From Cenococcum geophilum (taxonomy: Eukaryota): 64,000 nucleotides of DNA. The position numbers and the translations under genes were made by a program. Shown here in pieces: positions 1,504 through 32,483 of this stretch. Numbering within the stretch: the stretch's first letter is position 1; the number at the start of each line of letters is the position of its first letter. The stretch is from NCBI GenBank assembly GCA_050273025.1, contig CP158635.1, forward strand, positions 17,050,001-17,114,000, written 5' to 3'. Below the pieces are notes generated by a model. That model ran no database searches, had not been told where the DNA came from, and worked only from the letters and a program-made list of their open reading frames with translations.

Positions 1504-1509
1504 TGTAAG

Positions 1510-8108: not shown

Positions 8109-11100
8109 TGGAAACTCCATGGATACCTTATAGAAAGCCGTCGCGCAAAGGTAGGAAGGTCCCTCTAATAGCGAGAGATTGCGATAATATAACCCTTTAG
8201 GCAAGATGGTTAAACAAGCCCCAATACCTAAATGCTCTAGAAGCTTAAAGACTCTCGCATACCTACGGTTACCGGCAACGCTAAGGAAAATACAGACACC
8301 CTCTATAATAGTTATAACACTACTAGAAAGCAGCCGGAACCCCTCCGGCCCTACCTAGGCTAATCGAAAGATTAAGCGCTAGAGGCGACTTTAAGATCTT
8401 TCCCTAAGCCAGAAAAGCCAGAGGAATACACTAATATATCTAACTAGGGAACCAACTAAAACCCTCCTAGAAGACCACCGGCCTATAATTAGCATAGTGG
8501 CGGTACACAGACTGCTTATAAGCTAAGTGGGCCTACCCCTTTAGGTAATTTAAGTAAATCACTAACTTAAGACCCGAGCCCCGTTGGGAAGCCTATACTA
8601 GCTATTAGTACTAACACTACCTCTATAGTAGGAGCCTCCCTAAGCCTAAGTTTAGAAGGTTAAGAGCCCTATACCGATCTTCTTTAAGACGGATATTAGG
8701 AAGCTGTTATAAGGCTCTTGGAAGCTATACGGGAGGAAGCCACTAATAAATATATTAAAACCCTTTAAGGGTAAATCTAGATCTAGCAGGGTTTAATCTA
8801 AGCTAGGTAAATTCTTTTATAACCTAGTTAAGGCTAAAGGCTTTCTAGGGGCTACTTAGTACCTACCTAAGGAGGTATAGAAGACTTAAAGAGGCACCTA
8901 TATAATAAATGGAAAAAGAATATAGGCTGACTGGCTAAGGCCTCTAGTAGTCTAGAACTTCGTTATAGACCTAACGCCTAATAGCTAGACGATTGGGTTC
9001 GCGAAGTAGATAACTTCTTTAAGATGCTAATAATATAAAATAATACTAAAGAGCGTATACGCTGGATTATTAGTAAGATTAAAGACCGATTACTAAACTA
9101 AATTACGCTTAATTAACTTAATAAAGAGTAAATTATAATATGGCTATAGCTATAAACCTTCCTAAAGGGTTAGACCTAAGATCCGTATATTATACAATAT
9201 AATAATGCAGAACAATTCTAGAATGGTACGTAGCTAGACCGTTAAGACTTCCGCTAGTTTATAAACTTTATAGAAACTTATACTTAACAGATAGATCTAA
9301 AGCCCTTTAAAAATAAGGACGGCAGTGTCTATAAGAAGGAGAAAATCAGATTTATCTGGGCTAGAATTAAGCTAGCAATTTGTGACGAAATAAAGCGCGT
9401 AGGAGCCCTACTGCGGATTACCGTATATGCGGATTTCGAATAAGCGGTTCTAAACGCTAAGGATACGGTAAGGAACCAGACCTCTTCCGGTAGGAAGCTA
9501 GGGGGTCACTAAAAGTATAGGTACTCTAGTAGTAACATAGGGCAGACTTAACCTTTAAAGAAGCCGTTCTTAAAGAGAACTTTAGAAGGGTTAAGGTTAG
9601 GAACCTTAAATAATGGGAAAGACTCCTGGGGTTAACCTAATACTTATCCGGCACCTTTATAGGAACACTCTAAGAAGTTAAGAGAAAACTTTAAAGGTAG
9701 ATCCTATTAGAAAAATAAGCAGGGTAATAACCGCACTAATAATCTAAAAAAAGAAAAGCCCTAGTTGCGGACCTCTTCTAGCTGCAACTAGGGCAAGATA
9801 CGAAAGAAGAAACTCTCTATATTGCTATCAAGCTGGAAATAACACTCCCTATAGGTAAGGTATAACAGTTCTAAGCACTATACGATAGTGGTGCCGAAAT
9901 TAATCTTATATAATATAATTTAGTAAAAGAGCATAAACTTATCCCATTATAAAGGTGGCGGAAACCTATTATAGGCTTTTTAGATAAGCATTAGATTAAA
10001 CTATATAGTGCTTATAAGCTTATAGTGTTAGTAGCTAATATATATAACCGCACTAAGGTGGTTGGCCCGTAACCCTTCTAGGCGGCTAACTTTATAGGTT
10101 ATAACTTTATCCTTAAATACCCTTAGCTTGCGGAAGCAGATCTTAAGATATACTTTAAGACTAGAGCCTTTAAATGGTAGAATAATAAAGATTTGGAAGG
10201 GTGCATATTACTAATAAGCCTAAAGGATATCCTAGAGAATATAGCCCTAGGCGAAATAGTATACGCTCTATACCTAAAGGAGTATTAGATTTAACCCCTG
10301 TTTAATAGCAAGATAGGTATAGAGCCTAGTATAGGTAATAACTTCCCTATAACGAAGACCCTATAGGGAACTGCTGGATAGGTCGCAGAGACATTATAGG
10401 GAGGCGGCGATCTTAAGGATCTCATAAGATACTTTAACCGCTATGGGTTACTCTGGCTTAAGTAATATGCGGAGAGTATACTACAGCACCTTAAACGCTG
10501 CGTTAAGGAGTTCCTTACCCTCCACTAGCTACCATATAAAACGGTTTAATATACAGTGGTAACTATATACGAGTAACCACTATAGCGCACGACACTGCCC
10601 GTAAGCATCCTAAGGGAGCTCCGGGACCTACCTAATAATAACGCGAAAGATAAACGCGACCCTAATTTATTAAATATTCTAGTAGGCCTAAAGGACTTAT
10701 TAAGGGTATTTTCGGGCAGGAGAGCAAAAGTTCTACCGTAGAACTTGGAGTATAATTATATAATTGATCTAGAAAAAGGTAAATAACTACCAAACCTTCC
10801 TATCTATAACCTCTTGCGTAAAGAGCTTAAGATCCTACGGGAGTACCTTAATAGGTTACTGGAAAAGGGGTGAATCTGGCCTAGTAAGTTGCTATTAGGT
10901 ATACTAATCCTCTTCGTCCTAAAACCAGATAGAACTATAAGGCTATATATAGACTATTACGGTCTTAACAAGATTACAATTAAGAACTGTTACCTATTAC
11001 TACTGGTTAATAAAATGCTGGATCAACTATCTAGGGCGAAGATCTTTATAAAGCTAGATTTATAAGACGCCTATTATAGGCTCCGTATTAAAGAAGGGGA

Positions 11101-14100
11101 TAAGTAGAAGACCGCTTTTAAGACCCGATACGGCCACTTTAAGTATTTAGTGATGCCTTTTGGGCTAGCTAATGCGCCTACGACATTCTAATTGTATATT
11201 TACAGAGCCTTAGGGGGACTAGTTAACCGCATATATATCGTCTATTTAGATAATATCTTAATTTACTTAGAAGATAAGGATTAATACAAGCAATACGTCC
11301 GCGAAGTGCTAGAACGTTTAGATAATTAGGGCCTCTACGCTAAGGCGTTAAAGTATATCTTTAATACTAAGCAGGTTGAGTTCCTGGGTTATATTATAAC
11401 GCCTATAGGTATAGTTATAGACCTAATACGGGTGTAGATAATCTAGGAGTGGCTAGAGCTAGAGAGCTACTAGGATGTTTAAGTATTCCTAGGCTTTGCC
11501 AATTTTTATAGGCGCTTTATTTATAACTACTTAGACGTCACCTAATACCTATTTAACTATATTATAGAAGCTTTCCTAGACCTAACCTAAAGAGTAAAAA
11601 GCTTAAAGGCGGTAAGGAAGAAAACTAAAAAGGGACTAACTAAATAGTATAAGCTATAGTTATGGCCTAGAAAGGTTTAGAAGGCCTTCTAGGAATTACG
11701 CGTAAAGTTTATAAAAGCTCTATTACTGCGGCATTTCGACCTAGATTAGCCATTAATGATGGTTACTAATATATTGAATTTCGCCCTTACTGGTATTCTA
11801 CTGCAACCTAATAGGCATCTAAACGCTACCCAGCTCCATTAGAGACCAGTAATATTTTATAGCAGAAAATTCTAGGGACCTAAAGTTAGGTATTATACCC
11901 ACGATAAGGAACTACTGGCTATAGTTAACTGCTTTAAACAGTGGCGATATTACCTTAAGCACGCAAGCTATACCACTCGTGTACTCTTAGATTACTATAA
12001 TCTACGCTACTTTATAACTATAAAGGAGCTTATACCTTAATAAGCTAGATAGGCAGAGGAGCTCGCGCGATTTAATTTTAAGATTAAATATAAGCCAGGG
12101 GAAAATAACCCTGCTAATAGACTATTACGACGGCTAGACTATACTAAAGGCTTTAAAACGGGAGAAGAAAAACAGATAATAGATATCTTACTCCCTATAT
12201 TATAGAATAAGCTCTAGGTATAGGATGCTTAAGCACCCATAGCTCTATATACCAAGTCTTAGGTGGTATAAGCCCTATTAGTTTCTACTAATATTTTAGC
12301 TAGTACCCAGTCCATTACTAATAAGGGTCTAAATATACCTAGACAGGACGTCCCTAATATATTCTCAGAACCTAGTAATACACCATCTCTAATTGCTAAG
12401 CTATCCCCTTAAATAAATAGCGAAGCTATAGAGTAATTAGAACTCGGAGCCCTATAATAACTAAAGGATTTTAACCTTATAGCGGCCTTCCTAATATATA
12501 CGCATTAAAGAGTTGCAAGATCTATGGTACTATTTAGTCTTATACTTAGAGCAGTATAGGACGAAACAGCTTTTACCTGGAAACTATCCAAAAGTTTAAC
12601 GGATCTTATCCGTAAGGTGTAACGGAGGGACGCTTCCTATGCCATCCTTAATGCGGAAGTAGACCGGAAACGTAACGGAAAGGAAGCTGCTAGGCGCTAC
12701 TATTAGGAACTAGACCCAATGGGCCTACTATATAGAGGTGGCAAGGTTTAGGTGCTATAAGAAGTAAATCTATAACAGAAGATTCTTATAAAGAATTACG
12801 ATAATCTCTTAGGCGGCCACTATAGTTAAGCAAAGACAGTGGAATTACTTTAGCGTAAATACTATTAGCTAAGGCTTAATTAGGAAGTAAAGGAGTATAT
12901 TAGCTATTGCGAGAAGTGTTAAGTATATAAGATCCGTAGGTATAAGCCATAGGGTTTACTTAAATTAGTTCCCCCTGCTAGTAAGCTATAACGATATTAT
13001 GCTATAGACTTTATTACGGATCTCCTGCTATCTAAAGATGGCTAAGGATAAATATACGATTCGGTCCTTATACTTATTAATAGGTTTTTAAAGTACGTCT
13101 AATACCTTCCCGTTAACAAGACGATTAATATATAAGAGCTCGCCAACCTAATTAAGGAGAAATGCTTTCTTAAAGTAGATTAGCCACACTCTATTATTAC
13201 TAATAGGGGCAGCATCTTTATAAGCTAATACTAGTTAGACCTATGCTTCTATTTAAAGATAGACTACTAGTATAGTACGGCTTTCTACTTATAGACGGAT
13301 AGGTAAACGGAACGCCAGAACTAGGAACTAGAGTCTTACCTATAGATATATTTAAACTACTAACAAGATAACTAGTGCGAGCTACTTCCGTACACGGAGT
13401 ACGCTTACAATTTAAAGTAATACGCATTATATAAGTATGCACTAATCTAGATTGCCTATAGCGTCCAACTATTTAGGTTTAATAGTATACCCAATAATTA
13501 CTAGCTAAGGCCGTATGATTAATTATAGGATTCTACCGGGAAGTCTAAGGACATCTACTAAAGAGTATAAGGATACCTCTAGAAATGGGAGGAGTAATAA
13601 AAGTATACGAAGCAGAGCCTATAAGATGCCCAAGAGCAGTAAAGACTTTAGTATAACCGCAAGCACCAAGATAAGCATTTCGGAGTAGGCGATAAGGTTC
13701 TATTACGTTTAACGAATATTAAGACCCGTTAACTATTAAAGAAGCTCGATATAAGATACCTAGGTCCCTTTTAAGTTAAGAAATGAATTGGTAAGCTAGC
13801 CTATTATCTCTAGCTACTCCTATTTATGGCCTATATATATCTAGTGTTTTACATAAACCTACTAGAGCTATGGCATAGACCACCACCGGAAAAGAACTTC
13901 CGTCTAGGCCCAATTAAATACCCTAAGGTAGTGGGCGAGCGGTATAAGGTTAAAGCTATACTATACTATAAATCTGTTAAGAATAAGCTTTAATTTAAAG
14001 TTAAATAGCTAGGCTAGCCCGCTAAGGACTCTATATAGGAACTAGAGGATTACCTCAATTATTATAAAGATATTCTAAAAGAATATTAGGACCAAGGTCT

Positions 14101-14200
14101 ACAATCTATAAATCGTAAAAAGCGCTCTAATACTACGGTATTATCGCAACCTATAAAGAAAGCTCGTAGTAGGCTATAAAAGGCCCTAAAGAGTAAATAG
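8109..14200 (+). pseudogene. Gypsy B gag-pol (PR-RT-RH-IN-chromodomain), RIP-inactivated
   Basis: ATG at 8109, protease LYDSGAE (~9880), RT KTAFKTRYGHF..VMPFGLANAP (~11110) and YLD(D)IL (~11245), RNase H (~11760-12100), integrase (~12790-13500), chromodomain-like Y.V...VKW.GWP..DS.WE (~13940-14090). Confidence 0.9.
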
Positions 14201-15568
14201 GTTAAATCGGATATAGTATAGACAAGCTCCAGAAACTATAGGGATAGGGCTACAGCCTAAGGCAGGACGGGTCCTTAGCCTTTTCATATATATAGCATAG
14301 AGTTAATAGGGCATTTTGCTAGAATTATATTCCTATTTATTAATCTATACTAGTGTGGTGGGGTAAAATAGGCCACTGCTTAGTGCCTTGGCATTTCCTG
14401 TATATATTAAGCCTTCGGCTTCTCTCCTTCTCTTGACGACGACCTACCGGAATACATTCTTTCCTTTCTTTCTTACTGACTGCTTTCCTACTAATTGATT
14501 ACGACTGACGACCGACTGACCGACCGACCGACCGACAGACAGACAGCATTGTGACTTCCTATCTGAGAGGGACCGCGTCCACCACCACATATGGCATTCC
14601 ACGTGGGGACGACGGCAAGCTCTTTAGATTAGAAGTCTGGCATTCTATACACAACTATATACACAGGAGATACGCGCAGGAACATACCACGACTATAGAA
14701 GAACCGCCAGCTGCAGAAGAACGACCAGCTGCAGAAGAACCGCCAGCCAGACAGACGAGAAGAAAGCAGAGAACCAGGCAGTATTGGACAGCAAGGGGAA
14801 CCAGGTAGTCCCTGAACAGAAAGACAGCGGAAAAGACAGACATTAGACTTAACGCACAGGCCAAAGAGTGGCAAAAAGGAGTAGCAAAGGTCTCGGAAAG
14901 TTACGTGTAAGGACGTCTAGCGAACAGGCGAGCCAATCAGACAACTTTAACCGGTCGGAATTACCTAATATTTCTACTACCCGCGCACGAGCATGGCCAG
15001 AGCTTTATTAAAGATATAGAGATGACAAGTAGCTAAGGGCCAACGAGATCTAAGGTATCTGGCGGCAAAGGAAGTTAGCGCTGCCCTTTAGGAACAGAAG
15101 AGAGAACACCAAAAAAAGCCGTAAGCATATAAGATCAGATCTGCCCTTAAAAGCTTCCTATTCTAGCTTAACTTTATCTTCTTTTAAGTTATCCGGATCG
15201 TGTTAACAGCGGCTGCAGAGGCGTTCCATAAAGAAGTAGATATAGGCAGAAGCGTAAGGCTTAGCAGCACCCTACTGTGTGGAGCAACGGCAGGCCAAAA
15301 CAGACGGACGTATCGAGACCCGGCAGTAGTAGAAGATAGCGATTCTATGCTCTCCTAAGAAGACCGACCTCTAGGTGTTAAGAAGCAGCTAGAAGGAACC
15401 GAAGCCTATACTTCTTTTACTAAGTATAAACCAACACTAGGACAGCCACCTAAGACTAGTAACCCTTAGTAGACGAAGGATATAAGCTGTAAGGACCACC
15501 TGCAAGCTCTTAAGGAAGCGCTAGATGCACGTAACCAGCGGTCAACAGCTTAAGACAAGGTCTACGTT

Positions 15569-17273
15569 ATGGTCCAGCCTATACCAGCCCCAGGAACTGC
15601 TAGAGCTCCTTACTTTACAGGACAGAATATATCACAGTTTATTAAGCAGTACGAACGGCTATGCGCCCGATATCACATTATAAGCAAGGAGAAGCACCAG
15701 GGCCTTCTAGAGTACTGCAATTATTAGATAGGGATGTAGATCCGAAGCCTGCCTAAGTTCGTAATTGGTGACTGGACGGAGCTTGTAAGAAGGCTTAGGA
15801 CCGAATATTAAGCCGAGGACTACTACCGACGCATGGAGATAAGAGACTTTGTTAAGGCATTTGTTAGGAAGTCAGCGGAGCAGCTAGGAAATCTGCGTCA
15901 CTATATACAAGATTTCACCAGTATCTCAGCTAAAGCAGTAGCCGCAGGAAACCTTACTGAGCAAGAGAAGGGGCAATGGTTTGTGCGAGGACTTCCTATT
16001 AAATACTACAAGCACGTAATGGAAAAGACAGGAGCTGTAGCAGACGAGCCTAGTACCCTTATATTTAAGAGACTAAAGGAGGCCGTAAAGTTAAGGATAG
16101 TAGCTATAAAGGGCGCCAAGTAAATAGATGTCCTTCCGAAAGAAGACGCCCTAAATGTCCAGCTTATACAGGAGCTACGGTAGTAAAGGGATGGGCTTGA
16201 CCGTAGGAGAGAAGGAAGACTTCTTGACCTAGCTAGGCTAGGTGTACACGGAGGAGCCCTAATGTAGTAGTAGTCACCTACGACGGATTAGGAAATAGAC
16301 GAAACGGTAGGGCAGCTAAGGAGCCTAAAATTAACCAAGACGGAGCTTGCGGCAGCTATATAGTTGATGCCGTTTCTTGATTAAATACAGAAGGACCTAA
16401 AGAAGCTTATAACGCTTTCGAATCAAGCCGCAGCTTAAGGCCTAGCATAAGGATATAGCCTAGCACCAGGATACAAAGACTGGCAGAACAGCACCTAAGC
16501 TCCCTTTGCTCCGTAAGACTTTCGATATCCGTATGATTTTCAATATCTGCAAGACTATCGACCTCCGTAAGACTCTCGATATCCGCAAGGTTCTACCGCC
16601 TTTAGACAGCCGCAACGGGACGCACGGGGTACACGAGGACAAGGCCTACAGACCTGTTTTAGATGCGGAGGAAGTCACCGTTTCACTAAGCACGAATGTC
16701 AAGGCTTAAAGGATCTTATTTAGCAAGGATTTATGCATCTATCTAATTGAGGAAGACTAGCAGCTAGGATACGCGATCGGCCTAGACCTGTACTCCCGTA
16801 GCTTGGCAATAAAGGACGGCTAAAAGGTATTAAGAACTGGCTCCGTACGTACTAAGGAATAGACCTAGCTATAGATCGGAAAAGGGAAGGATAAGGACAG
16901 ACGCAGCAACAGGCCCTAATAGTATAAACGGATTTTACTGCTTTCTATAACGGAGTAGTACTACAAAACAGTAACGAAATATGGACGAACTAGGAGGACT
17001 GCTATTAAGTACGGCCCACGGACTTAGTAACGCCTAGCCAGCAACGTCCGCAGACTTGCTCAACCCTTAGAGACAGCCGTGCAACTAGGACAACCGTTAA
17101 GTAGCAGCAGGCACAGCCGTAGGAGAGGAATGTACGACCGGGAGATTACATCCAGATTGGGTCACAGCCTACGGATAAGACGGCTAAAGCTAGGAAGAAG
17201 AATAAATCGTCTAATCCTTGGAGACGGTCTTAGAGACGGACGCTTAAGCAACAGGCTCTGCAGTAGGCTCTGA
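15569..17273 (+). pseudogene. gag-like protein of element C (end approximate)
   Basis: MVQP.PAPGTAGAPYFTGQNISQFIKQYERL start resembles fungal retroelement Gag. Includes ORF 15833-16123 and a CF.CGGSH...C knuckle-like motif at ~16655-16700. Confidence 0.65.
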
Positions 17274-17461
17274 AGCAGGCTCCGCCGCAGGTGTAGGATA
17301 TTTAACTAGGGGACAGTCAAGTTCTAAGGTGGGGGAGGGGACGCAGGTAACGGCCGCATAAAAGATTTCTATTTATCTGCTTAGTTACAGTATTTCCTAA
17401 GGCTCCTTTTCTTATTTACTTTCTTAATCGCAACGCGTTAAGACGCGTCAGTCGCTGCTGC

Positions 17462-17577
17462 AAAGATGCCAGCTTAGCTCACCGCCTATCGCCGAGCTAA
17501 TAGCGATTTTCCATCCCGGGGATGGAAAATCCTAATTGGTCCATTCAGCAATAGAGCCGGCAGAACTCTATACCGCC
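17462..17577 (+). other. Conserved palindromic module Y, copy 1
   Basis: Alignable to 23665-23780 and 41948-42065. Contains the hairpin GATTTTCCATCC-cgg-GGATGGAAAATC. Confidence 0.85.
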
Positions 17578-17989
17578 CCTAGAATTCGATAATACACCAG
17601 CTGCATGACGAGAACGGCACCAAGAGCCTTAATTGATTGCATAGATATAGAGCCGGTTGTACGATGCAGAGCTAGACGCAGAGCTGTATGCAGAGCATTG
17701 ATTGAATGACTGCACAGAAGCCACGATCAGCCGTATATAGATGCAGACCTGCGGCCAGCCAAAGAACCGAATCAAGCCAGAGCCTCGACATTAGCACATC
17801 TCGTCCCTGAATCAAATCAGTCAAATATCGTCAAATTAGAGCCTTCGACCGGGCCGACTTTGTTCCTTATTCAAACAACAGCTAATCGCAGCACGACTGT
17901 TACTGCCACCCGAATTCAGCACTGTATTAGCTGCACAACGAGAACAGACGCCGCGATAAGGAAGGGACCTATATAAAGGCAACAGCACG

Positions 17990-18670
17990 ATATCAGTGAC
18001 AAAGCACCGTAGAAATGGTAGAGCAGTATATAAAAAGGCACTGCAAGAGATCGTATATAGGGCACGGCTGACCACGTTAAGCCTAAGCTATCCTTATACG
18101 ACTGAAGACGGGACCGAGCCGTGTCTAGCTGAGCTAGTAAAGGACCTTGTTGAGATTTATAAGGGAAACAGGAATTAGACGTACAGGGGCTAGCGCTTTT
18201 CCTCAGAGGTCGTCTTAATAAAGGACTGTATTGTGGACATAAGGGCAAGGGATATGCGACGGAGGTAGTTATAACAGCCGAGAAGCTGCTACCGGATGGT
18301 TTCGAAGGACGACTTAGACGAAGCATAGAGTCAGTAGACAGCAATTAAGAGACTAGAAGCAGAAAACAATCTTAAGAAGGTTCTTAAGCCGGAAGAAAAT
18401 CAAGGATATGTAAGTGTACTGCCAGTAGCGGGAATAAAGAAGTAGCCGCAAAAGCCTAAGGATGCACCAAAGAAGCCAAAAGTAAGGACGGCTTAGAAAA
18501 GGAAGAAAGCAGCTGTCAAGGACGTCCTATAAAAGCGCTAGGCCTGTTATAGTGGTTCAGAGGAAGCTACCGTTAGTGCTCACAAAGAAGGAAGTCTTAA
18601 GACGGGTCTCTAGATTGGACGTCTAGTAGACACTAAGAGCCCTAATTATACGATGCGGAGCCTTGATTAA
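17990..18670 (+). pseudogene. Unknown ~225-codon ORF inside element C (charged, Lys-rich C-terminus), RIP-broken
   Basis: The frame of ORF 17996-18178 continues to ~18670 through TAG/TAA stops explainable by RIP. Confidence 0.4.
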
Positions 18671-20968
18671 CTGTATAGATATAAGGCTTTAACCAAACGA
18701 CTATGCAGCTAGAGTTTTAATTGATTGTCCGTAGATGCCAAACCTACGGATGCAGAGCCTCGATCGTATATACAGCAGAAGATACCTTAAGTCAAGCTAA
18801 AGCCTCTGTCAAATCCTAATCAGTTAAACGCCGCCTATATAAGTCAAGTCATCAAATTAGAGCCTTCGGTCGGGCCAACCTAATACCCTATTTAAACGTC
18901 AGTCAATTATACGTTGTCACAGTCAAATCAAATGAGTCACCGTCGCCGTCAAACGTCTTCAATCGGCAGCCAAAGATGCATCACCGCAGGCACGCAGGCA
19001 CGCAGGCACTAGACCTAATTAGGAAACCAGTATACGGCTAACAGAACGTCAGAAGCACAGCCAATTAACGTCTTAGAGCCTCTGCGAGAGCCTCTTCCCT
19101 TAACTACCTACCTCCGTATTAATCGATTGCTGCCTGTCTTAACGCCTACGGATTAGTTAACCAAAACAATCTTTCCTACAGATATAGATACGGAGCTTTA
19201 CACAGAGTCTCACACGGAGTCGCATATGGACCCTACGGATATAGAGCATATAGGTGCAGATCCTTAATTGGACAACAGTACGGCAGCTTAACTAGACGCC
19301 TATAAATGCAAAGCCTTAATTAAACGGCAGATGCGGAACCTTAACCGATCAGACGTCTATACGGAAGCTTTAATCAACTATCTACGGATATAGGGCCCCA
19401 GTCGTACATGCAGCAGAAGACACCTTAAGTCAAGCCAGGGCCTCATTAAGTCTAAATCAGCTGAACGCTGTCTCCGCATTTAAATCAGGACAATTAGGGC
19501 CTTCAACCGGGCCGACTTTCTACCTTAATCAAACAACCGAACGATCAGTTGCAGCACATCGTCGCCGACCAATTAGACAGTCTTCGGCCAGCAGTTAAGG
19601 CAGCCATGTACACATACACACAGACACGGACGCAGACATGGACGCAGAATATGCAATATAGAGCTATTAATGCCAGCCAGATGTATAGCTAGACGCGCAG
19701 CCAGACGCACAGCTAGACGCACAGCTAGATGCAGGGCCTGATGCAACGCCACGGATAGAGCCTTAATTAAGAAGCTGCGTACGATGCAGACCGATACAGA
19801 GCTAGATGTAGAGTTTTAATACCAAACGGCAGCGGAACGATCGAGTCAACCCAGAGCCTCTGCTACCTTGATTGGCTGTCCTGCCACCGCCGCTGCTGCC
19901 GCTATTCCGTCCAGCTATTTCGTCCTTACTATCTCAACCGACTGCTATCTCTACCGTCCTAGATTTATACCGCTGCTAGGTCTATTTACTGCTAGATCTG
20001 CTAGATCTATCATGCCGTTCTATACTGCTATTCCAACCAATCTGTTCTACTGCTGCCGACTAGCTGTTCTACCGCTGCCACTACTGCCATTGCTATTCCG
20101 ACTGTTCCGTTCTATTATTCCGATTATTCTACTGCTACCGTTCTTACTAACTGCTACTGACTGACTGCTACCGACTGACTGCTACCGACCGTCTGCCGCT
20201 ACCGAGATTTCTACTACTAAAAGTTCTGCTGCTGGATGTCCTACTGTTTACTAACTGTTACCGAATTCTTCTACCGAGTATTCTACCGCGCTGACTGTCT
20301 GCCGTATTACTATTGCTACTACCGTTACTGTTGCTGCTATTACTGCTATTACTGCTGTTGCTACTGTTACTGCTACCGTTATTGTTTCTAGTTTACTGCT
20401 GTCCTAGTTGCTAGGTTGGATCTTAGCTATAGGTAACGGAGGACGCCGTGGAACAGTTCTATAGGAGGGCTGAGGACAAGGTTACCTGTGTTCTTTTAGG
20501 GGTGTGCTTTCCTTTTTCTATTCTGCTTTTGCTTTACTTTCGTTTAGCTATTCTTCTATAGTATAGAACGTTAGGGGATAACGTTCTTAGTGGGGGAGGT
20601 ATGTAGTGGGGTAAAATGGGCCACTGCTTAGTGCCTTGGCATTTCCTGTATATATTAAGCCTTCGGCTTCTCTCCTTCTCTCGACGACGACCTACCGGAA
20701 TACATTCTTTCCTTTCTTTCTTACTGACTGCTTTCCTACTGATTGATTACGACTGACGACCGACCGACCGACCGACCGACCGATAGACAGACAGCATTGT
20801 GACTTCCTATCTGAGAGGGACCGCGTCCACCACCATACTAGGAATATTATTTCTAGGGCTCCCAAGCCCTTCCTAAAAGCCTTCTAAGGCCTTCCTAAGC
20901 ACCTAATTAAGGTCCTTAATTGCTACTATATATAAGAATAAATCCCAAATACCTAATCTGAAAAGCCA

Positions 20969-21924
20969 CTATGCCTTATCCTCAGGAGTAGGATTAGTAT
21001 CCATCGGCCCTCTAAGGGATGGCTGACGAGAATGAGATCTAGACCCCTTAGTAGGGGTATGAGTAGGCATAAAAATAGGGGTAGGATGATAAGGTGTAGC
21101 TAGGGCAGAGATCCTTAAACGCTTAACACTAATATTAGGTCTAAACTAATACTAATAAAGCTCTTGTGGCGTAAGCTTATAGTTAATAAAGATACGCTTA
21201 AGCCCAGAATAAACAGAGACGTTAGCTGGCTAGTATAGCCCAAAACCACCAAGACCTTGCTACAGCAACTATTAATTACCTATCCGCTAGGTACCTAAAG
21301 GGTAACCTACCTAATACCGCATTATATTATGCTCTTTTAAAACTTAACGCGTATACGCAAACTTCTTCCTATAGTAGACAGCGACCTTCTTCTTATTACC
21401 CCTATCCCGTACCCTATCCTTAGTATACTAACCTTACTCTCGTATTAGGCATTACTGGCTAGCTTACTAGGAATTATGGGCGGTGTAAATAGCTGTGGTA
21501 TAGTCTCAAATTTAACTAAGACATTTAGCATTAGCGCTGGAATGAGACAAAGCCCGGGTAATGTAGTAGTTAAGGACATTAAAGGATTGTTGCCACTTAG
21601 GCCCAGGCTATTAAAGCTTAAAGTTAGCAATGGAAATCTATTAAGGATAGAAAAGCTTACCTTAACGTAACTACTGCTCTTAGTACGCATGCATTAATTA
21701 TAAGAACTAAAGGTATTAGATTTAACGCAGTGCGTCTTATTATAAGCCTCTAGAATCCTGTTATTAGATTTCTGGTCTTTTAAAGACATATAGGCAAAAT
21801 TATTTAGGTAGGACTAGCACTAGTTACAAGTTAGTAAAGGTTAGGGTTCTATATATAAAGGTAGGGCTAGGATACGCTATAGAATCTACTTAAAAGAGCA
21901 GTTAGTAGGAGAACAAAGAGGCAT
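20969..21924 (-). pseudogene. Antisense accessory gene of Gypsy B: Cys-cluster protein with one intron (21608-21660)
   Basis: ATG at 21924. In-frame CxxC...C...CxRCMRTKSGSCVK, then a 53-nt GTAAGC...GCTAAC...TAG intron. Conserved in B copy 2. Confidence 0.65.
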
Positions 21925-22974
21925 ATTAAATTATTAATGGAAAAGAAGAAAATCTTAATAATATATCGAAGATACGTCTAAAATTGGACGAAGGTTAATA
22001 ATGGGAAAGTAAGGTGTTAAGGAAAAGGAGCTGCTTAATAAGCAAAGGTATCCTTATACTTTACTGTCTAATACCCTTCTAGTAAATAGCCGTAACCTTA
22101 CTAATATAACTCTGTTATAATAGCGCTATTTAAAAGAAAAAAAACACGTGTATAAGTTATTTAACTATTACTTCCTTATAAAAACTAACTACGCGGCCAG
22201 GGGAAGGTAATTAAAACGTTAAATTAAAGATATATATAGGTTAAATTAGACCTAAAATAATACTATAGTATTAAAGAATAACGTTATAGACGTTCTTAAT
22301 AATCGTATAATAGTTACAATTACTATCGCGAAATGTCCCTATTTACTAGGTAGTAAAGCTACGCCAAATATACAGCACAAGATTACTAGATTTAAAACCA
22401 TATACACTAAATCTTAAGAGATAAGTCTCTTTAACTAACTAATTAATACCTTAACCGTATTTAATAGCCTAAGGGCAAATATAGGAGTAATGCGTTAGTG
22501 ACGCAGAGGATTATAAGAAAAGGATTATAAGAAAGAATTATAGACTATATTTTAGTAGTTAAAGACAACAGTAAGCTAAGGCTCTATACGTTAAATCCTA
22601 TACTAAAAGGTTCTATAGAACTATACTAGAACACTAAATTGCCTATAATACTTATAATTGATTACAGACCGGCATAAAGGCTTAGAAGCAGAGTTGTATA
22701 AAAATCCCTATATTAGCCTAGGTAGTCACCGGTATACTTCTAGTAAGCTTTTAATAGGTCTCCTAGCAATCCTCACGTCTTTTCTCTAGTTACGTTTTTC
22801 CCTTATTAAGGTTTTTTAGGAGTTTAAAGTAGGGGTTAGATAGATAGATAATATATAGCGGCATACTAATACTTCTCTAATATCTCTCCGAACCTCTTCC
22901 GGGATAAGCCCTTATAATCTCCCTACCGTAAGGTAATAGTAATTGGGGGCCGACTATAAGAAGGGGGGGGGTAA

Positions 22975-23189
22975 TATAAGGGATATTATTGCGGACACCT
23001 TGGGTTGCCCTTAGGACAACCCCTAGACGCCCCTTGGATAGTTGCTAGTCACGTGCTAAAGGCACATGCCCGTAGTATATAGTCTCCACAATCCTAAAGG
23101 CCTTACCTCCTTAAGGATTCGTCTCTCTTACTAATCTATCCTATTCCAATCGTGTCCTTATAGCCCCCTATCTATAAGATCCCCTCACA
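22975..23189 (+). repeat. Gypsy B 3' LTR
   Basis: Matches the split 5' LTR; preceded by a PPT; ends CACA. Confidence 0.93.
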
Positions 23190-23194
23190 TATAT

Positions 23195-24168
23195 AAACTT
23201 GCTATAACCCTTAAAGGGTAAACCTATAACTCGCGAAGTACCACTACTACCTTCCGTAATTATTAATAACGGCAACGGTTCTTATTTTATTAACTTAATT
23301 AATAATATATAATAGAAGATATAATCTAAATAATTTAAACTTCTTATTAAATAGAAAGGATATAAAATATAAACTTAGGAAACCTATAACTAGATTAAGA
23401 CTAATACGCCTTCCCTAGTAAAAGAATTCTATAAGAACTATTCTTTATGGCCTGCTCTAGCTAGATAAATACAATATAAAAGCAAATAATTATTACCTAA
23501 TATAAATACACGAAACATAATAGCAGGAAGCTTGAAATTAAAAAAGACTTAAAATACGTTATAACGTTTATAATATAATTATATAATATATAAGATATTA
23601 AGGAACTTTAACCACCAGTTAAAGTTATTTAATTAGTTAGATCTGCCTTACCAAGACCTACTATAAAGATATTAGTTCTACTTACCGCCTTAACTAAGCT
23701 AATAGCGATTTTCTATTCTGGGAATGGAAAATCCTAATTAGTCCATTTAATAATAGAATTGGTAAAACCCTATACTGCTACCTAACGCGAAAATACAATA
23801 CGCAATAAGTTATAAGTCTTAACTAAAATTAAATTATTTAGACCTTTGGTTAAAAGGGGGGGTACTATAACGGGACTAGCCCAGTTATAGTAGGAATGTC
23901 TTAGTAAAACACTTAACAGATAAATTCCAACGCTTTAACCAAAATCTGCCAGATTAATTAAATTACTAAAGTCCGTTAAAGACCGCGTGCGTATATATAC
24001 ACGCATCAACCACTAAGCCCCTAACTATTTAATTATATAATTCTCTTATTATTCCTTTCTCTTCTTTACGTAATGTCTTGTTCTTAGCGAGAGCTATATA
24101 CCCTTAGATTTAGATAGAATTTATATTATTCCTTTAAATCTTCCCCGAAGTCTCTCCACGCCCTTACA
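23195..24168 (+). mobile_element. Gypsy A 3' end: chromodomain, 3' UTR (modules X and Y), PPT and 3' LTR (23866-24168)
   Basis: Chromodomain-like LLIKW.GY...WE.Y (~23340-23400). PPT AAAAGGGGGGG at 23852-23862. LTR runs T(G)TAAC...TTACA. Confidence 0.8.
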
Positions 24169-24902: not shown

Positions 24903-26505
24903 TATAACGGAATCCCCTAAAAGGTACATATTAGATAAAACAATAGGAGGTTTTATCTATATCCTATTTATATTTTATCTACGTCCTAGAAGACATAGTT
25001 AGATAAATAAGGGGCGAAGGGTTTTACTAGCGTCTTAGAAGGATTATATAGGGAGCTAGTTCTCCTCTAAAGAAGAGCTAGTAATTAGTCTCTAAATAGA
25101 AGAGGTTAGAAAGCATTTATCCTTTATATATAAAGATCGTTCTACCTTAACTTATCTTCTACTTACCTATAACTCTTATTCTATACTATTAATTAAATAA
25201 TTATACATTCTGGTTAAACTGGCCTTTTATAATTCTAATATAAGGGGATCTTATAGACAGGGGGCTATAAGGACACAATTGTAAAACAGAATAGATTAGT
25301 AAGAGAGACGAATCTTTAAGGAGGTAAGGCCTCTAAGATTATGGAGACTATATACTATAGGCACGTGCCTCTAGCACGTAACCGGCGACTATCTAAGGGG
25401 CATCCAGGGGTTGTCCTAAGGGTAACCTAAGGTGTCTATAATAATATCCCTTATATTACCCCCCCCCTTCTTACAGTTAGCCCCTAATCGCTATTACCTT
25501 ATAGTAGGGAGATTATAAGGGCTCGTTCCGGAAGAAGTTTGGAGAGATATTAGAAAGGTATTAGTATGCCGCTATATATTATTTATCTATCTAACCCCTA
25601 CTTTAAACTCCTAAAAAACCTTAATAAGGGAAAAACGTAACTAGAGAAAAGATATAAGAATTACTAAAAGACCTATTAGAAGCCTACTAGAAGTATACTA
25701 ATAACTACCTAGGCTAATATAGGGATTTTTATACAACTCTGCTTCTAAGCCTTTATACTAGTCTATAATTAATTATAAGTATTATAGGTAATTTAGTGTT
25801 CTAATATAGTTCTATAGAACCTTTTAGTATAGGATTTAACGTATAGAGCCTTAGCTTACCATTATCTTTAACTGCTAAGATATAGTCTATAATTCTTTCT
25901 TATAATCCTTTTCTTATAATCCTCTATATCACTAACGCATTACTCCTATATTTGCCCTTAGGCTATTAAATATGGTTAAGGTATTAATTAGTTAGTTAAA
26001 GAGACTTATCTCTTAAGATTTAATATATATAGTTTTAAATCTAGTGGTCCTATGCTATATATTTAGCGTAGCTCTACTACCTAGCAAATAGGGATATTTT
26101 GCGATAACAATTATAGCTATTATACGATTATTAAGAACGTCTATAACGTTATTCTTTAATACTATAGTATCGTTTTAGGTCTAATTTAACCTATATACGT
26201 CTTTAATTTAATATCTTAATTGCCTTCCCCTAGCCGCGTAGTCAGTTTTTGTAAGGAAGTAATAGTTAAATAACTTATACGCGTGTTTCCTTTCTTCTAA
26301 ATAGCGCTATTATAACGGAGTTATATCGGTAAGGTTGCGGCTATTTATTAGAAGGGTATTAGACAGTAAAGTATAAGAACACCTTTACTTATTAAGCAGC
26401 TCCTTTTCCTTAATACCTTACTTTCCTATTATTAACCTTTATCTAATTTTAAATGTATCTTTAATATATTATTAAGATTTTCTTCTTTTCCATTAATAAT
26501 TTAAT

Positions 26506-27464
26506 ATGCCTCTTTATTCTTCTGCTAACTACTCTTCTAAGTAGATTTTATAGCGTATTTTAGCCCTACCTTTATATATAGAACCCTAACCTCCACTAAC
26601 TTGTAACTAGTGCTAGTCCTACCTAAATAATTTTGCCTATACGTCTTTAAAAGATTAGAAATCTAATAATAGAATTCTGGAGGCTTATAATAAGACGTAC
26701 TGTATTAGATTTAATACCTTTAGTCCTTATAATTGATGCATACGTACTAAGAGTGGCAGTTGCGTTAAGGTAAGCTTTTCTATTCTTAATAGATTTCTAT
26801 TACTAACTTTAAGCTTTAATAGCCTGGGCCTAAGTGGCGACGTTCCTTTAATATTCTTAACTACTATATTGCCTAGGCTCTCTTTTATTCTAGCGTAAAT
26901 GCTAAATAACTTGGCCAAATTTAAGACTATGCTATAGCTATTTATACTACCTATAATTCCTAGTAAGCTAGCTAGTAACGCCTAATATAAGAGCAAGGTT
27001 GGTATACTAAGGATAGGGTAAAAGATAGGGGTAATAAGAAGAAGGTTGCTGTCTACTATAGGAAGAAGTTTGCGCATGCGCGTTAAGTTTTAAAAGAGTA
27101 TAATATAATACGTTATTAAGTAGGTTACCCTTCAGATACTTACCGGATAGGTAACTAATAGTTGCTATAGTAAGGTCTTAGTGGTTCTGGATTATACTAG
27201 CCAGCTAATATCTCTGTTCATTCTAGGCTTAAGCGTGTCTTTATTAACTATAAGCTTACGCTATAAAAGCTTTGTTAGTATTGGTTTAGACCTAATATTA
27301 GTGTTAAGCGTTTAAGAGTCTCTACTTTAGCTATACCTTATTGTCCTGCCCCTGTTTTTATGCCTACTTATACGCCTACTAAGGCATCTAGATCCCATTC
27401 TCGTTAGCCATCACTTAGTGGCCTAATGGATACTAATCCTACTCCTAATAATAATAAGGCGTAG
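26506..27464 (+). pseudogene. Antisense accessory Cys-cluster gene of B copy 2 (intron 26770-26822)
   Basis: Homologous to 20969-21924, with the same ATG, Cys codons and splice signals. Confidence 0.65.
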
Positions 27465-30400
27465 TGGCTTTTCAGATTAGGCATTTGTGGTTTAGACTTT
27501 TAGGATTCGTTTTTATATATAGTAGCAATTAAGGACCTCGATTAGGTGCTCGGGAAGGCCTTATAAGGCTTTTAGAAAAGGCTTAGAAGCCCTAAGGACA
27601 ATATTCCTAGTATAGATTAATGAATAGGAATGCAATTCTAGCAAAATGCCCTATTAACTCTATACTATATACGTGAAAAGGCTAAGGACCTATCCTACCT
27701 TAGGCCGTAGCCCTATCCCTATAGTTTCCGAAGCCTGTCTATTCTATATCCAATTTAACCTATTTACTCTTTTCGCGAGCTTTCTTTATAGGTCGCAATG
27801 ACACTATAGTATTAGAGCGCTTTCTATAACTTATAGATTATAGACCTTAGTCTTAATATTCTTTTAGAATATCTTTGTAATAATTAAGGTAATCCTCTGG
27901 TTCCTATATAGAGTTCTTAGTAAGCTAGCCTAGCCATTTAACTTTAAATTAAAGCTTGTTCTTAATAGACTTATAGCGTAGTATAGCTTTAACCTTATAC
28001 TACTCGCCTACTACTTTAGGGTGTTTAATTAGACCTAGACGGAAGTTCTTTTCTAGTAGTAGTCTATACTATAGCTCTAGTAGGTTTATGTAAAATACTA
28101 GATGTATATAGGCTATAGATAGGGGTAGCTAGAGACAATAGGCTAGCTTACTAATTCGTTCCTTAACTTAGAAGGGACCTAGGTATCTTATATTAAGCTT
28201 CTTTAATAGTTAACGGGTTTTAATATTTGTTAAACGTAATAGAACCTTATTGCCTACTCTAAAATGCTTATTCTGGTGCTTACGGTTATACTAAAGTCTC
28301 TACTGCTCTTGGGTATTTTATAGGCTCTGCTTTGCATACTTCTATTACTCCTTCTATTCCTAAAGGTATCCTTATACTTTTTAGTAGATGTCCTTAAACT
28401 TCCCGGTAGGATCCTATAACTAATTATATGGCCTTAGCCAGTAATTATTGGGTATACTATTAAACCTAAATAGTTAGACGCTATAGGTAATCTGGATTAG
28501 TGTATACTTATATAATACGTATTACTTTAAATTATAAGCGTACTCTGTGTATGGAAGTAGCTCGCACTAGTTATCTTACTAGTAGTTTAAATATATCTAT
28601 AGGTAAGACTCCAGTTCCTAGTTCTGGCGTTCCGTTTACCTATCCATCTATAGGTGGAAAGTAGTACTATAATAGTGGTCTATTTTTAAATAGAAGTATA
28701 GATCTAACTAGTACTGGCTTATAAAGACGCTGCCCCTATTAATAATAATAGAGTGTGGCTAATCTACTTTAAGAAAGTATTTCTCCTTAATTAGGTTAGT
28801 AAGCTCTTATATATTAATTATCTTATTAATAGGAAGGTATTGGATGTACTTTAAAAACCTATTAATAAGTATAAGGACCGAATTGTATATTTATCCTTAG
28901 CTATCTTTAGATAGCGGGAGATCCGTAATAAAGTCTATAGCGTAATATTGCTATAGCTTACTGGCGGGGGGAACTAATTTAAGTAGACCCTATAGCTTGT
29001 GCCTACAGATCTTATATACTTAATACTTCTCATAATAGCTAATATACTCCTTTACTTCCTAATTAAGCCTTAGCTAATAGTATTTGCGCTAAAGTAATTC
29101 TACTGTTTTTACTTGACCATAGTGGCCGCCTAGGGGATTATTGTAATTCTTTATAAGAATCTTCTATTGTAGATTTGCTTCTTATAGTACCTAAACCTTA
29201 CTACCTCTATATAGTAGGCCCATCGGGTCTAGTTCCTAATAGTAGCGCCTAGTAGCTTCCTTTTCGTTATATTTCCGGTCTACTTCTATATTAAGGATGG
29301 TATAAAAAGCGTCCCTTTATTACACCTTACGGATAAGATCTATTAACCTTTTAGATAGTTTTTAGGTAAAAGCTATTTTGTCCCATACTACTTTAAGTAT
29401 AAGACTAGATAGTACTATAGATTTTATAACTCTTTAATACGTATATATTAGGAAGGCCGCTATAAGGTTAAAGTTCTTTAGTTATTATAGGGCTCTAAGT
29501 TCCAATTACTCTATAGCTTTATTATTTGTTTAAGGGGATAGCTTAGTAATTAGAGATAGTATATTACTAGGTTCTGAGAATGTATTAGAGACGTCTTATC
29601 TAGGTATATTTAGACCCTTATTAATAACAGACCGGGTACTAGCTAAAATATTAGTGAAAACTAATAGGGCTTATACCGCCTAAGACTTGGTGTATAGAGC
29701 TATAGGTACTTAAGCATCCTATACCCGGAGCTTATTCTGTAATATAGGGAGTAAGATATCTATTATCTATTTTCCTTCTCCCGTTTTAAAGCCTTTAGTA
29801 TAGTCTAGCCGTCGTAACGGTCTATTAGTAGGGTTGTTTTCCCCTAGCTTATATTTAATCTTAAAATTAAATCGCGTAAGCTCCTCTGCCTATTTAGCTT
29901 GTTAAGGTATAAGCTCCTTTATAGTTATAAAGTAGCGTAGATTATAGTGATCTAAGAGTATATAAGTAGTATAGCTCGCGTACTTAAGGTAGTGTCGCTA
30001 CTATTTAAAGTAGTTAACTATAGCCAGCAGTTTCTTATTGTGGGTATAATACCTAACTTTAGGTCCCTGGAATTTTTTATTATAAAATACTACTAGTCTC
30101 TAATAGAGCTAGGTAGCGTCTAGATACCTATTAGGTTGCAGTAGGATACTAATAAGGGCAAAGTTTAATATATTAGTAATTATTATTAATAGCTAATTTA
30201 GGTCGAAATGCCGCAGTAATAGAGCTTCTATAAACTTTGCGCGAAGTTCTTAAAAGGCCTTTTAAACCTTTCCGGGCCATAACCATAGCTTATACTATTT
30301 AGTTAGTCCCTTTTTAGTTTTCTTCCTTACCGCCTTTAAGCTTTTTACTCTTTAGGTCGGGTTTTAAAAAGCTTCTATAATATAGTTAGATAGGTATTAG

Positions 30401-31604
30401 GTAATGTCTAAGTAGTTATAGATAAAGCGCCTATAGAAATTGGCAAAGCCTAGGAATACTTAAATATTTTAGTAGCTCTCTAGCTCTAGCTACTCCTAAA
30501 TTATCTACACCCGTACTAGGTCTATAACTATACCTATAGGCGTTATAATATAACCCAAGAACTTAACCTGCTTAGTATTAAAGATATACTTTAATGCCTT
30601 AGCGTAGAGGCCCTAATTATCTAAACGTTCTAGCACTTCGCGGATATATTACTTGTGTTAATCCTCGTCTTCTAAGTAGATTAAGATGTTATTTAAATAG
30701 ATAACGTATATACGGTTAACTAGTCCCCCTAAGGCTCTATAAATATACGATTAGAATATTATAGGCGTATTAGCTAGCCTAAAAGGCATTACTAGATACT
30801 TAAAGTGGCCATATTGGGTCTTAAAAGCGGTTTTTTACTTATCCCCTTCTTTAATACGAAGCCTATAGTAGGCGTCTTATAGATCCAGCTTTGTAAAGAT
30901 CTTCGCCCTAAATAGTTAATCCAGCATTTTACTAACTAGTAGTAGTGGGTAACGGTTCTTAATTATAATCTTATTAAGACTATAATAGTCTATATATAGC
31001 CTTATAGTTCTATCTAGTTTTAGAATAAAGAGGATTAATACGCCTAACGGCGACTTACTAGGCCAGATTCACCCCTTTTTTAATAACCTATTAAGGTACT
31101 TCTATAGGATCTTAAGCTCTTTACGCAAGAGGTTATAGATAGGAAGGTTTAGCAGTTATTTGCCTTCTTCTAGATTAATTATATAATTATACTCCAAATT
31201 CTATAGTAGGACTTTTACTCTTTTACCCGAAAATACCCTTAGTAAGTCCCTTAGGCCTACTAGAATATTTAACAAATTAGGGTTACGTTTATCCTTTATA
31301 TCATTATTAGGTAGGTTTTAGAGCTCCCTTAGAATGCTTACGGGCAGCGTTGTGCGCTATAGTAGTTGCTTATATATAGTTGCCACCGTATATTATATAT
31401 CAAGATTTTTTTTTTTAGGCGCGTTGTTGCAGATTGCGGCAATTTGCTGCAAACTGTGCGATTTGCGTGGTCGTATATGGTCGTTAGCGATTCGCGCAAA
31501 CCGCGCGTTTCGTAATAAATTTACAGCTTCTGCTAGCAAATTGCAGCAAAACGCTTAACTACTAAACTAATGCCAGTAAAATGCTACCCTATAAATAAAT
31601 AGCT

Positions 31605-31745
31605 CGCAAACTGTATAAATTATAAAAACTATATAAATTATAAAAACCGTACGAATTGTAAAAACCGTACGAATTGTAAAAACTGTATAAATTGTAAAAA
31701 CTGTACAAATTGTAACTATATAAATTGTAACTATAAATTATAATT
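31605..31745. repeat. ~18-bp AT-rich tandem repeat (AAAAACYGTAYRAATTGT)
   Basis: Visible periodicity. Confidence 0.85.
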
Positions 31746-31889
31746 ATATTATATAATAACCAAATTATCACATATTCCCATAGATTTCTATAATATACTT
31801 TTAAATATATTTATATTATAACTATATAAAATATAGAGCTATCTACTTTGGGCGTTAAGGGGGAAGCCTCTCGCAGAGGCTCTAAATTA

Positions 31890-32100
31890 TCTACCTACCT
31901 ACCTGCCTGCCTGCCTGCCTGCCTGCCTACCTACCTGCCTGCCTACCTACCTGCCTACCTGCCTGCCTGCCTGCCTACCTGCCTGCCTACCTGCCTGCCT
32001 GCTTGCCTACCTATCTGTCTGTCTGTCTGTCCGTCCGTCTATACCTACCCGTCTATGCCTACCTATCTGTGCCTACCTGTCTGTGCCTACCTGTCTATGT
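31890..32100. repeat. (CCTG/CCTA/TCTG)n tetranucleotide microsatellite
   Basis: Visible. Confidence 0.9.
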
Positions 32101-32169
32101 CACCTTGATTCGATCGATCGATCGAATCGTTTATCGTGTTCGCTGGCTGGTCGTTCGAACGGTTGTCGT

Positions 32170-32483
32170 GTGGCTCTGGCGACGGTCGTGTGGCGATGAC
32201 GACGGTCGTCTGGCTCTGACGGTCGTCTAGCTCTGGCGACGGTCATCTGGCTCCGGCGACGGTCGTCTAGCTCTGACGATGGTCATCTGGCTCCGGCGAC
32301 GGTCGTCTAGCTCTGACGACGGTCGTCTGGCTCTGACGGTCGTCTAGCTCTGGCGACGGTCATCTGGCTCCGGCGACGGTCGTCTAGCTCCGGCGACGGT
32401 CGTCTAGCTCTGACGACGGTCGTCTGGCTCTGACGGTCGTCTAGCTCTGGCGACGGTCGTCTGGCTCCGGCGACGGTCGTCTG
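32170..32483. repeat. 18/21-bp minisatellite (GGCGACGGTCGTCTRGCTCY)
   Basis: About 15 visible units. Confidence 0.9.

Follow-up and report, generated by a model that had tools for sequence, protein, structure and literature searches.

Mutated remains of a spliced antisense gene between pol and the 3' long terminal repeat of a chromovirus in Cenococcum geophilum

Does a fungal retrotransposon carry, on the strand opposite to gag and pol, a spliced gene of its own? The question is raised by a stretch of 64,000 nucleotides from Cenococcum geophilum (GenBank assembly GCA_050273025.1, contig CP158635.1, positions 17,050,001 to 17,114,000 of the forward strand), here called the window and numbered from its first letter. 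Self-BLAST and repeat comparison identified in it two copies of one long terminal repeat (LTR) element, Gypsy B, a Ty3/gypsy chromovirus; both copies are degraded by repeat-induced point mutation (RIP). The original prediction, made from the letters of the window, had placed in both an antisense, intron-containing gene for a cysteine-cluster protein. We find that the opposite strand of both copies does hold a genuine gene, of three exons, now decayed by mutation. The reading that we favour, with a probability of roughly 0.8, is that this chromovirus family carries a third gene, spliced, antisense and under selection, which encodes an accessory factor aiding the propagation of its own element.

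The gene occupies part of the interval from pol to the 3' LTR: minus strand, 21924-20966, in copy 1; plus strand, 26506-27464, in copy 2. As pol of copy 1 is on the plus strand, the gene at 21924-20966 is antisense. Its parts were mapped on L001, an intact relative described below, as follows.

21661..21924, minus strand: exon 1 of copy 1, 88 codons from the ATG at 21924, coding for the Cys-rich module, now pseudogenic (mapped on L001; tblastn 65% identity, E 2.5e-30).
21608..21660, minus strand: intron 1 of copy 1, 53 nt, phase 0, GTAAGC...CTAAC...TAG (mapped on L001).
21311..21607, minus strand: exon 2 of copy 1, 99 codons, helical part (mapped on L001; tblastn 70% identity, E 7.7e-42).
21260..21310, minus strand: intron 2 of copy 1, 51 nt, phase 0, GTAGGT...TAG, branch site blurred by RIP (mapped on L001).
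20966..21259, minus strand: exon 3 of copy 1, 97 codons and the stop (mapped on L001; tblastn 69% identity, E 1.6e-37).
21925..22954, minus strand: spacer of about 1 kb from the ATG to the polypurine tract, presumed antisense promoter and 5' untranslated region.
26506..26769, plus strand: exon 1 of copy 2 (mapped on L001, tblastn).
26770..26822, plus strand: intron 1 of copy 2, 53 nt (mapped on L001).
26823..27119, plus strand: exon 2 of copy 2 (mapped on L001, tblastn).
27120..27170, plus strand: intron 2 of copy 2, 51 nt (mapped on L001).
27171..27464, plus strand: exon 3 of copy 2 with the stop (mapped on L001, tblastn).

The predicted presence of the gene in both copies is thereby confirmed, within a post-pol repeat in which 20976-23145 is 89% complementary to 25285-27454. 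So is its place between the chromodomain and the polypurine tract on the opposite strand (pol is on the plus strand, the polypurine tract at 22955-22972), and the same holds for the ATG at 21924 and for the phase-0 intron of 53 nt with GTAAGC, CTAAC and TAG, found at 21660-21608 and, in copy 2, at 26770-26822. The predicted ends agree with those of the mapped gene to within the stop codon. Two points had to be revised. The approximately 210 further codons assigned to the region beyond this intron are indeed coding, but they do not form a single exon: they correspond to exons of 99 and 97 codons split by an in-frame 51-nt intron. The Cys module is present in the predicted frame, but its full pattern is lost from the window, where several Cys codons now read Tyr through G>A changes, and is complete only in un-RIPped relatives.

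The stops of the two copies are mostly of RIP type, as had been proposed. The spliced frame contains 19 stops in copy 1 (6 of them in exon 1, derived from CAA, CAG, TGG and CGA codons) and 22 in copy 2, nearly all from these four codons. Of the exon differences from L001, 134 of 156 in copy 1 and 160 of 168 in copy 2 are C>T or G>A. Compared with each other, the two copies differ in the post-pol region by 246 transitions and 15 transversions, and over the 2.3 kb before the LTR by two indels, of 15 nt (at 20945) and 3 nt (at 20975). The latter is the sole indel within the gene and is in frame. Both lengths are multiples of three, and the two sites closely flank the 3' end of the antisense gene, the 15-nt indel outside it and the 3-nt indel within. 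A tblastn search of the window revealed no homologue of the gene in its other elements.

Intact relatives were obtained by scanning metagenome contigs with an alignment of the database open reading frames (ORFs) that match the region, which gave 80 loci of the same element family. Two loci, L001 and L043, are un-RIPped, with a GC content of 0.50 in the gene region. They have open gag (542 and 544 aa) and open pol (1447 and 1452 aa), and are about 87% identical at the DNA level, i.e. about 13% apart. Pfam recognises RVT_1, RT_RNaseH, rve, SH3_Tf2-1 and Chromo (E 1.9e-15) in the pol of L001, and L043 retains both LTRs (215 nt, 96.7% identical). The spliced antisense frame is open in both, encoding 284 aa in L001 and 280 aa in L043. 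The structure in L001 is the following.

7529-7266, minus strand: exon 1, 88 codons, ATG at 7529.
7265-7219, minus strand: intron 1, 47 nt, GTGAGC...CTGAC...AATAG.
7218-6922, minus strand: exon 2, 99 codons.
6921-6871, minus strand: intron 2, 51 nt, GTAGGT...CTGAC...CGTAG.
6870-6577, minus strand: exon 3, 97 codons and TAG.

L043 has the same structure, with an intron 1 of 57 nt and in-frame 6-nt indels in exons 2 and 3. Between the two loci, intron 1 shows 13 mismatches over 47 aligned positions and a 10-nt indel, GT and AG being retained; no obvious CTRAC branch site was seen in that of L043. Without splicing, reading past exon 1 terminates after 6 codons in L001 and 14 codons in L043, and intron 2 contains an in-frame TAG in both. 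The two proteins are identical at 253 of 285 aligned residues. Upstream of the ATG, the spacer is 78-86% identical up to about 330 nt and about 85% identical in the remainder, with a gap of about 150 nt. Between the ATG and the polypurine tract the only ORF of at least 80 aa prolongs exon 1 of L001 in the 5' direction, and L043 does not have it. The layout, with the gene antisense between pol and the 3' LTR, is the same in L001, L043 and the window copies.

The dead copies carry the same gene. When 57 RIPped copies, including both window copies, were aligned to L001, the exons were free of frameshifting indels in 51, while the spliced frame contained 10 to 24 stops per copy. The commonest stop changes were CAG>TAG (285), CAA>TAA (267), TGG>TAG (169) and CGA>TAA (133), and all changes of Cys codons were TGY>TAY. 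Splice sites were largely kept: GT at donor 1 in 56 copies, AG at acceptor 1 in all 57, GT at donor 2 in 56 and AG at acceptor 2 in 53. The start codon reads ATG in 34 copies and ATA in 20. The original prediction had staked itself on a multi-copy de-RIP consensus, and it survived: the consensus has no frameshift and one internal stop (TAG where L001 has CAG), ends one codon early, and encodes a protein identical to that of L001 at 269 of 285 positions. De-RIPping from the window copies alone removed almost no stops, because both share the same RIP changes.

Stop density within the window had favoured other frames, namely an unspliced minus frame and a plus frame, and had spoken against the intron, a reading overturned by the intact copies. 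The true spliced frame in the window contains 19 stops and two non-coding frames 14-15. As CAA, CAG, TGG and CGA codons are targets of RIP, stops are created mainly in the true frame; in RIP-mutated DNA this frame may therefore hold more stops than non-coding ones.

The selection acting on the gene was measured as the ratio of non-synonymous to synonymous substitution rates (dN/dS; Nei-Gojobori method) between L001 and L043, gag and pol being treated likewise. The ratio was 0.036 for exon 1 (4, 3 and 30 differences at codon positions 1, 2 and 3), 0.029 for exon 2 (3, 3 and 26) and 0.345 for exon 3 (9, 10 and 18), so that third positions take 56 of the 69 differences in exons 1 and 2. For all exons together, this test, which had been suggested with the original prediction, gave 0.09; the values for pol and gag were 0.15 and 0.21. 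Purifying selection between these two copies is thus stronger on the antisense gene than on gag or pol; within pol, 300-codon stretches gave 0.08 for the reverse transcriptase core and 0.065 for the integrase core. Of the other 15 exon-by-frame combinations, three belong to the sense frame with the same third positions; they gave ratios of 0.12-0.45, but in each exon that frame is interrupted by stops in one lineage or both. The remaining twelve gave ratios of about 1 or more.

Homologues were searched with phmmer, using the exon 1 peptide of L001 against 1.84 billion representative proteins (E<=0.001). The 33 matches comprised 4 multi-stretch, apparently unrelated ones and 5 ORFs of the same family (64-82% identity); the others were 30-48% identical over nearly the whole of exon 1. 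Names were looked up for 30 of the 33, and those that were named are all 'hypothetical proteins' of Pleosporales (Lentithecium fluviatile, Ophiobolus disseminans, Phaeosphaeriaceae sp. PMI808, Lophiostoma macrostomum and Decorospora gaudefroyi). Full-length homologue models, of 242-397 aa, are colinear with all three exon peptides of L001 and bridge both junctions, and the annotated homologues lack the 17 residues that intron 2 would encode. This provides independent support for the splice junctions and for the age of the gene structure. Four models (P0033, P0036, P0043 and P0057) have an extra in-frame insert exactly at the position of intron 1. A word-based search with exon 2 for longer proteins found none.

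The product, of about 284 aa, consists of a conserved N-terminal motif, six conserved cysteines, a predicted three-helix bundle, a GLG...RWYYYG motif and a poorly modelled tail. The structure predicted for the Lentithecium homologue P0015 shows a small Cys-rich module, three long helices, the conserved C-terminal motif and a poorly modelled tail, in this order (predicted local distance difference test score, pLDDT, 66.8 overall and 75-93 for residues 31-140; predicted template modelling score 0.62). The Cys module may bind metal, and the product is probably intracellular.

Taken with its position, these properties support a gene that is integral to the element, contains introns and codes for protein: two lineages whose gag and pol are open keep it intact, it is constrained, and it is fixed beside pol. 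The 3' end of pol adjoins the gene in the same arrangement in 69 of 81 metagenome copies, mostly 250-350 nt away, and of the 12 copies lacking an adjoining pol, 10 run off the contig. The gene is therefore found in most copies of the family, both window copies included, rather than in a single transduced one. Antisense introns are not removed from the sense-strand genomic RNA and are thus copied along with the element. The introns of this gene would survive retrotransposition in the same manner, their splice sites not being splice sites on the genomic RNA. Transcription may start from an internal antisense promoter in the spacer of approximately 1 kb that separates the ATG from the 3' LTR. The selection and the analogy with other elements suggest that the product would be an accessory factor acting inside the cell, probably binding metal and favouring the spread of the element, much as may hold for the antisense extra genes in other LTR elements and in retroviruses; strong purifying selection inside a multicopy element points to such a role. 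The factor might act in the control of transcription, at a nuclear step or in protecting the element from silencing.

Several observations weigh against this reading. The selection test compares two un-RIPped copies only. Exon 3 has a low synonymous rate (dS 0.29) and a high ratio (0.35), and intron 2 is identical at 51 of 51 positions between L001 and L043. The Pleosporales homologues are known as gene models alone, apart from their DNA context. Pfam searches of 32 family members gave only scattered matches at E>0.03 and no family, and the full P0015 model, compared with solved folds, matched generic helical bundles at best (Foldseek E 2.0, VIA Z 4.8). Over 20836-23204 we compared one raw RNA run (X21), two RNA-labelled contig sets (X15 and X16) and one DNA run. 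In X21 the depth over the gene was at most 1.8 and no strand call resulted; no joint at 21608-21660 or 21260-21310 was found in the 4 runs, at an RNA depth of about 1, and contigs of X15 and X16 cross both intron positions unspliced. Such contigs fit sense-strand RNA of the element or carried-over DNA, and the runs neither show nor exclude expression of intact copies elsewhere.

The identity of intron 2 and the low dS of exon 3 imply recombination or nucleotide-level constraint in part of the gene; this region has undergone either recent recombination or carries a signal at the nucleotide level. About 200 nt flanking intron 2 (L001 6771-6960, window positions of about 21160-21350) are 94-98% identical between the lineages, and in the whole element equal conservation was seen elsewhere in one 100-nt stretch of pol only. 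After the 5' splice site of intron 2 comes a hairpin whose loop is C(UUCG)G; its folding z-score is only -1.6.

Among the alternatives, the one that survives best, while still unlikely, is a passenger origin: an ancestral element of the family would have picked up a host gene on a single occasion, and the gene would persist through selection for a host-level function, or by hitch-hiking, with no part in the life cycle of the element. Gene transduction by LTR elements is documented in PMC7264820, and gene annotation treats the homologues in five Pleosporales genomes as ordinary hypothetical proteins. Against this stand the fixed place of the gene beside pol in 69 of 81 copies and its integrity in two lineages about 13% apart that have open gag and pol, with a dN/dS below that of either. 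Such selection in a multicopy element would be hard to maintain unless the spread of each copy depended on the gene. Moreover, some of the homologues are present several times per genome or lie on contigs as long as an element, about 8 kb. The 'hypothetical' proteins of several Pleosporales genomes probably belong to retrotransposons themselves.

Slightly less probable again is a product of the Zn(II)2Cys6 (GAL4-type) class, a diverged transcription factor that binds DNA. The family resembles the Zn(II)2Cys6 domain (PF00172) in being a short fungal domain with six cysteines, conserved throughout the family, and in its C-x2-C-x6-7-C half-site. The latter fits the second half of the GAL4 pattern, which we take to be C-x2-C-x6-C-x5-12-C-x2-C-x6-8-C. 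The lineage of L001 and L043 has a further Cys 5 residues after the first C-x2-C, and the product has no hydrophobic N-terminus, making an intracellular metal-binding role plausible. However, the spacing across the family (alignments A3 and A4) is C-x2-C-x19-33-C-x8-9-C-x2-C-x6-7-C, so that 19-33 residues, rather than 6, separate the first pair from the third conserved Cys. Nor does the family as a whole retain the extra Cys seen in L001. Four of the six cysteines are invariant in A4, and the second and third are lost together in two related sequences. The original prediction was thus right in calling the spacing not canonical for GAL4; its proposal of a Zn(II)2Cys6-like domain was not borne out by spacing or profile. 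Pfam Zn_clus matched none of the 32 family members at E<=1, the exon 1 peptide had no Pfam match at E<=10, and a profile search of PDB sequences gave nothing below E 8.7. In the comparison with known folds that had been proposed, neither model matched a solved structure: for the exon 1 domain (pLDDT 76) the best scores were VIA Z 2.6 and Foldseek E 8.1.

Other searches named no family for the protein. Among the three exon peptides, Pfam gave DUF4054 alone (E 0.049, below its cut-off), and six-frame read-throughs of the post-pol region gave no Pfam match. In the ESM Atlas exon 2 had no usable match, and the clusters nearest to the homologue P0037 were unnamed Ascomycota proteins with scores of at most 0.88, no more than a lead. 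DUF3716, the label of 28% of one such cluster (score 0.82), was rejected as it was not borne out by Pfam.

It is very unlikely that the functional product is an antisense RNA, for example a source of double-stranded RNA tuning the element, with an incidental ORF. Regulatory antisense transcripts are discussed for LTR elements in PMC7264820. In L001 the gene ends 296 nt from the pol stop, so that a 3' untranslated region could overlap pol, and intron 2 with its flanks is unusually conserved at the nucleotide level. What decides against such an RNA is the excess of third-position differences in exons 1 and 2, with dN/dS of 0.03-0.04 and frames open in both lineages, together with the existence of homologues at the protein level, with 30-40% identity. 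Only selection on a protein explains these findings; a role of the RNA could be additional.

That there is no gene at all, the frame being a chance or shadow ORF opposite a sense-strand feature, has a negligible probability: the two frames with fewer stops in the RIPped window, and the six plus-frame against one minus-frame ORFs of at least 200 aa that match the region in databases, are outweighed by the intact gene, its selection and its homologues, RIP making stops preferentially in the true frame. A sense-strand ORF was rejected in particular, since the plus ORFs over exon 1 are in different frames in L001 and L043 and have stops or a dN/dS above 1. The single minus-frame database match, P0008, was discarded as a fold-back chimera. 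It is an ORF of 214 aa that runs in the plus frame and then in the minus frame, from a fold-back or palindromic contig of a related copy.

The accessory gene that we favour has counterparts in position. The one known fungal case, the brtn gene of Boty-like elements of Botrytis and Sclerotinia, is likewise an extra antisense gene of a Ty3/gypsy element, located between pol and the 3' LTR and of unknown function, according to the citing papers PMC8365987, PMC7264820 and PMC4227169, and the Boty-like gag-pol also carries a CHROMO domain, according to PMC4227169. The hosts differ, the relatives found here being Dothideomycetes and those of Boty Leotiomycetes. No Botrytis, Sclerotinia or BRTN name occurs among the 30 exon 1 matches looked up, a comparison by names and not with the brtn sequence.

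In plants, the aORF-3R genes (gene23 of maize Grande, and those of rice RIRE2, Silene Retand and Phaseolus PvRetro13) have the same position and orientation; in PMC7264820 they are described as occurring in the majority of copies of their families, with conservation similar to that of the other element proteins, and as having neither clear database similarity nor known function, and Grande gene23 as having its own antisense promoter. The gene described here shares the antisense place between pol and the 3' LTR, with a dN/dS of 0.09 (pol 0.15, gag 0.21). It differs in belonging to another kingdom and another protein family, in a constraint that is measured and stronger than that on pol, and in its two short introns, whose positions are conserved in distant homologues; the word 'intron' does not occur in the main text of PMC7264820. 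The same 2020 review called the roles of antisense extra genes in LTR retrotransposons undetermined, and it mentions antisense transcription of human T-cell leukaemia virus (HTLV).

Retroviruses have antisense accessory genes of their own, HBZ of HTLV-1 and ASP of human immunodeficiency virus 1 (HIV-1), and the HBZ mRNA is spliced. As in the present case, HBZ and ASP are encoded opposite gag-pol near the 3' LTR, and they are expressed from an antisense promoter; the gene described here, from a fungal host, has no sequence or domain relation to them.

Text searches for antisense ORFs of fungal retrotransposons gave no description of this family. It appears to be a new, undescribed protein family among antisense extra genes. 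More tentatively, and with odds clearly below even, it could be the founding member of an unnamed, retrovirus-style family of accessory genes of fungal chromoviruses, so old that elements across Pleosporales share it, unrelated to brtn and needed for spread, for instance by driving LTR transcription or by blunting host genome defence. Its product, a six-cysteine module joined to a helical bundle, would then be without any solved or catalogued relative. The case is a clean one, since it combines intact and dead copies, a gene under tighter constraint than pol and intron positions conserved in distant homologues. The sense strand over the gene is non-coding, so that mutations can be placed in the gene while gag and pol stay unchanged, and fungal hosts make functional tests feasible.

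The assignment of Gypsy B to the chromoviruses is based on the window copies and their relatives, which show the order reverse transcriptase, RNase H, integrase with a C-terminal chromodomain, as well as LTRs and a polypurine tract. In copy 1 the pol domains matched by Pfam were all in the plus frame starting at 7778, stops being read as X, and the chromodomain (end at about 14060) was recognised by eye in the translation. The RIP signature of the element is a TA/AT index of about 1.7-1.75 and a GC content of 0.36-0.37 in copy 1 and 0.33 in copy 2. The element and its surroundings are arranged as follows.

7776..23204, plus strand: Gypsy B copy 1, split by a nested LTR element (self-BLAST, repeats, pol domains).
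7776..8008, ends approximate, plus strand: 5' LTR of copy 1, a 233-nt direct match to 22973-23204 at 89.7%.
10919..14062, plus strand: pol of copy 1 from the reverse transcriptase core to the chromodomain, with RIP stops inside (RVT_1, RT_RNaseH, Integrase_H2C2 and SH3_Tf2-1 matches).
14354..20835, plus strand: nested LTR element A, with 234-nt LTRs at 14354-14587 and 20602-20835, 97% identical.
22955..22972, plus strand: polypurine tract directly 5' of the 3' LTR, a purine run read in the sequence.
22973..23204, plus strand: 3' LTR of copy 1 (repeat match).
25237..37815, minus strand: Gypsy B copy 2, inverted and more heavily RIPped (self-BLAST, repeats; GC 0.33).

Element A is inserted outside the antisense gene, with the pol stop on one side and the stop of that gene on the other. 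It is younger than Gypsy B and weakly RIPped, with a GC content of 0.47. The 5' LTR of copy 1 directly adjoins a third LTR element (1508-7783), whose LTRs of 277 nt share 97.5% identity. Copy 2 is split by a block of tandem repeats at 31396-34432 (GC 0.54, seemingly spared by RIP) that contains an array with a period of 12 nt at about 32640-34220, (TGCC/TACC)n at 31872-32043 and 20-nt repeats at 32139-32509. The X15 and X16 sets also include a 4.5-kb contig, at a depth of 142, that is 86% like 21041-21448, and a joint from LTR position 23083 back to 21384; together these suggest a rearranged, possibly transcribed relative of the element.

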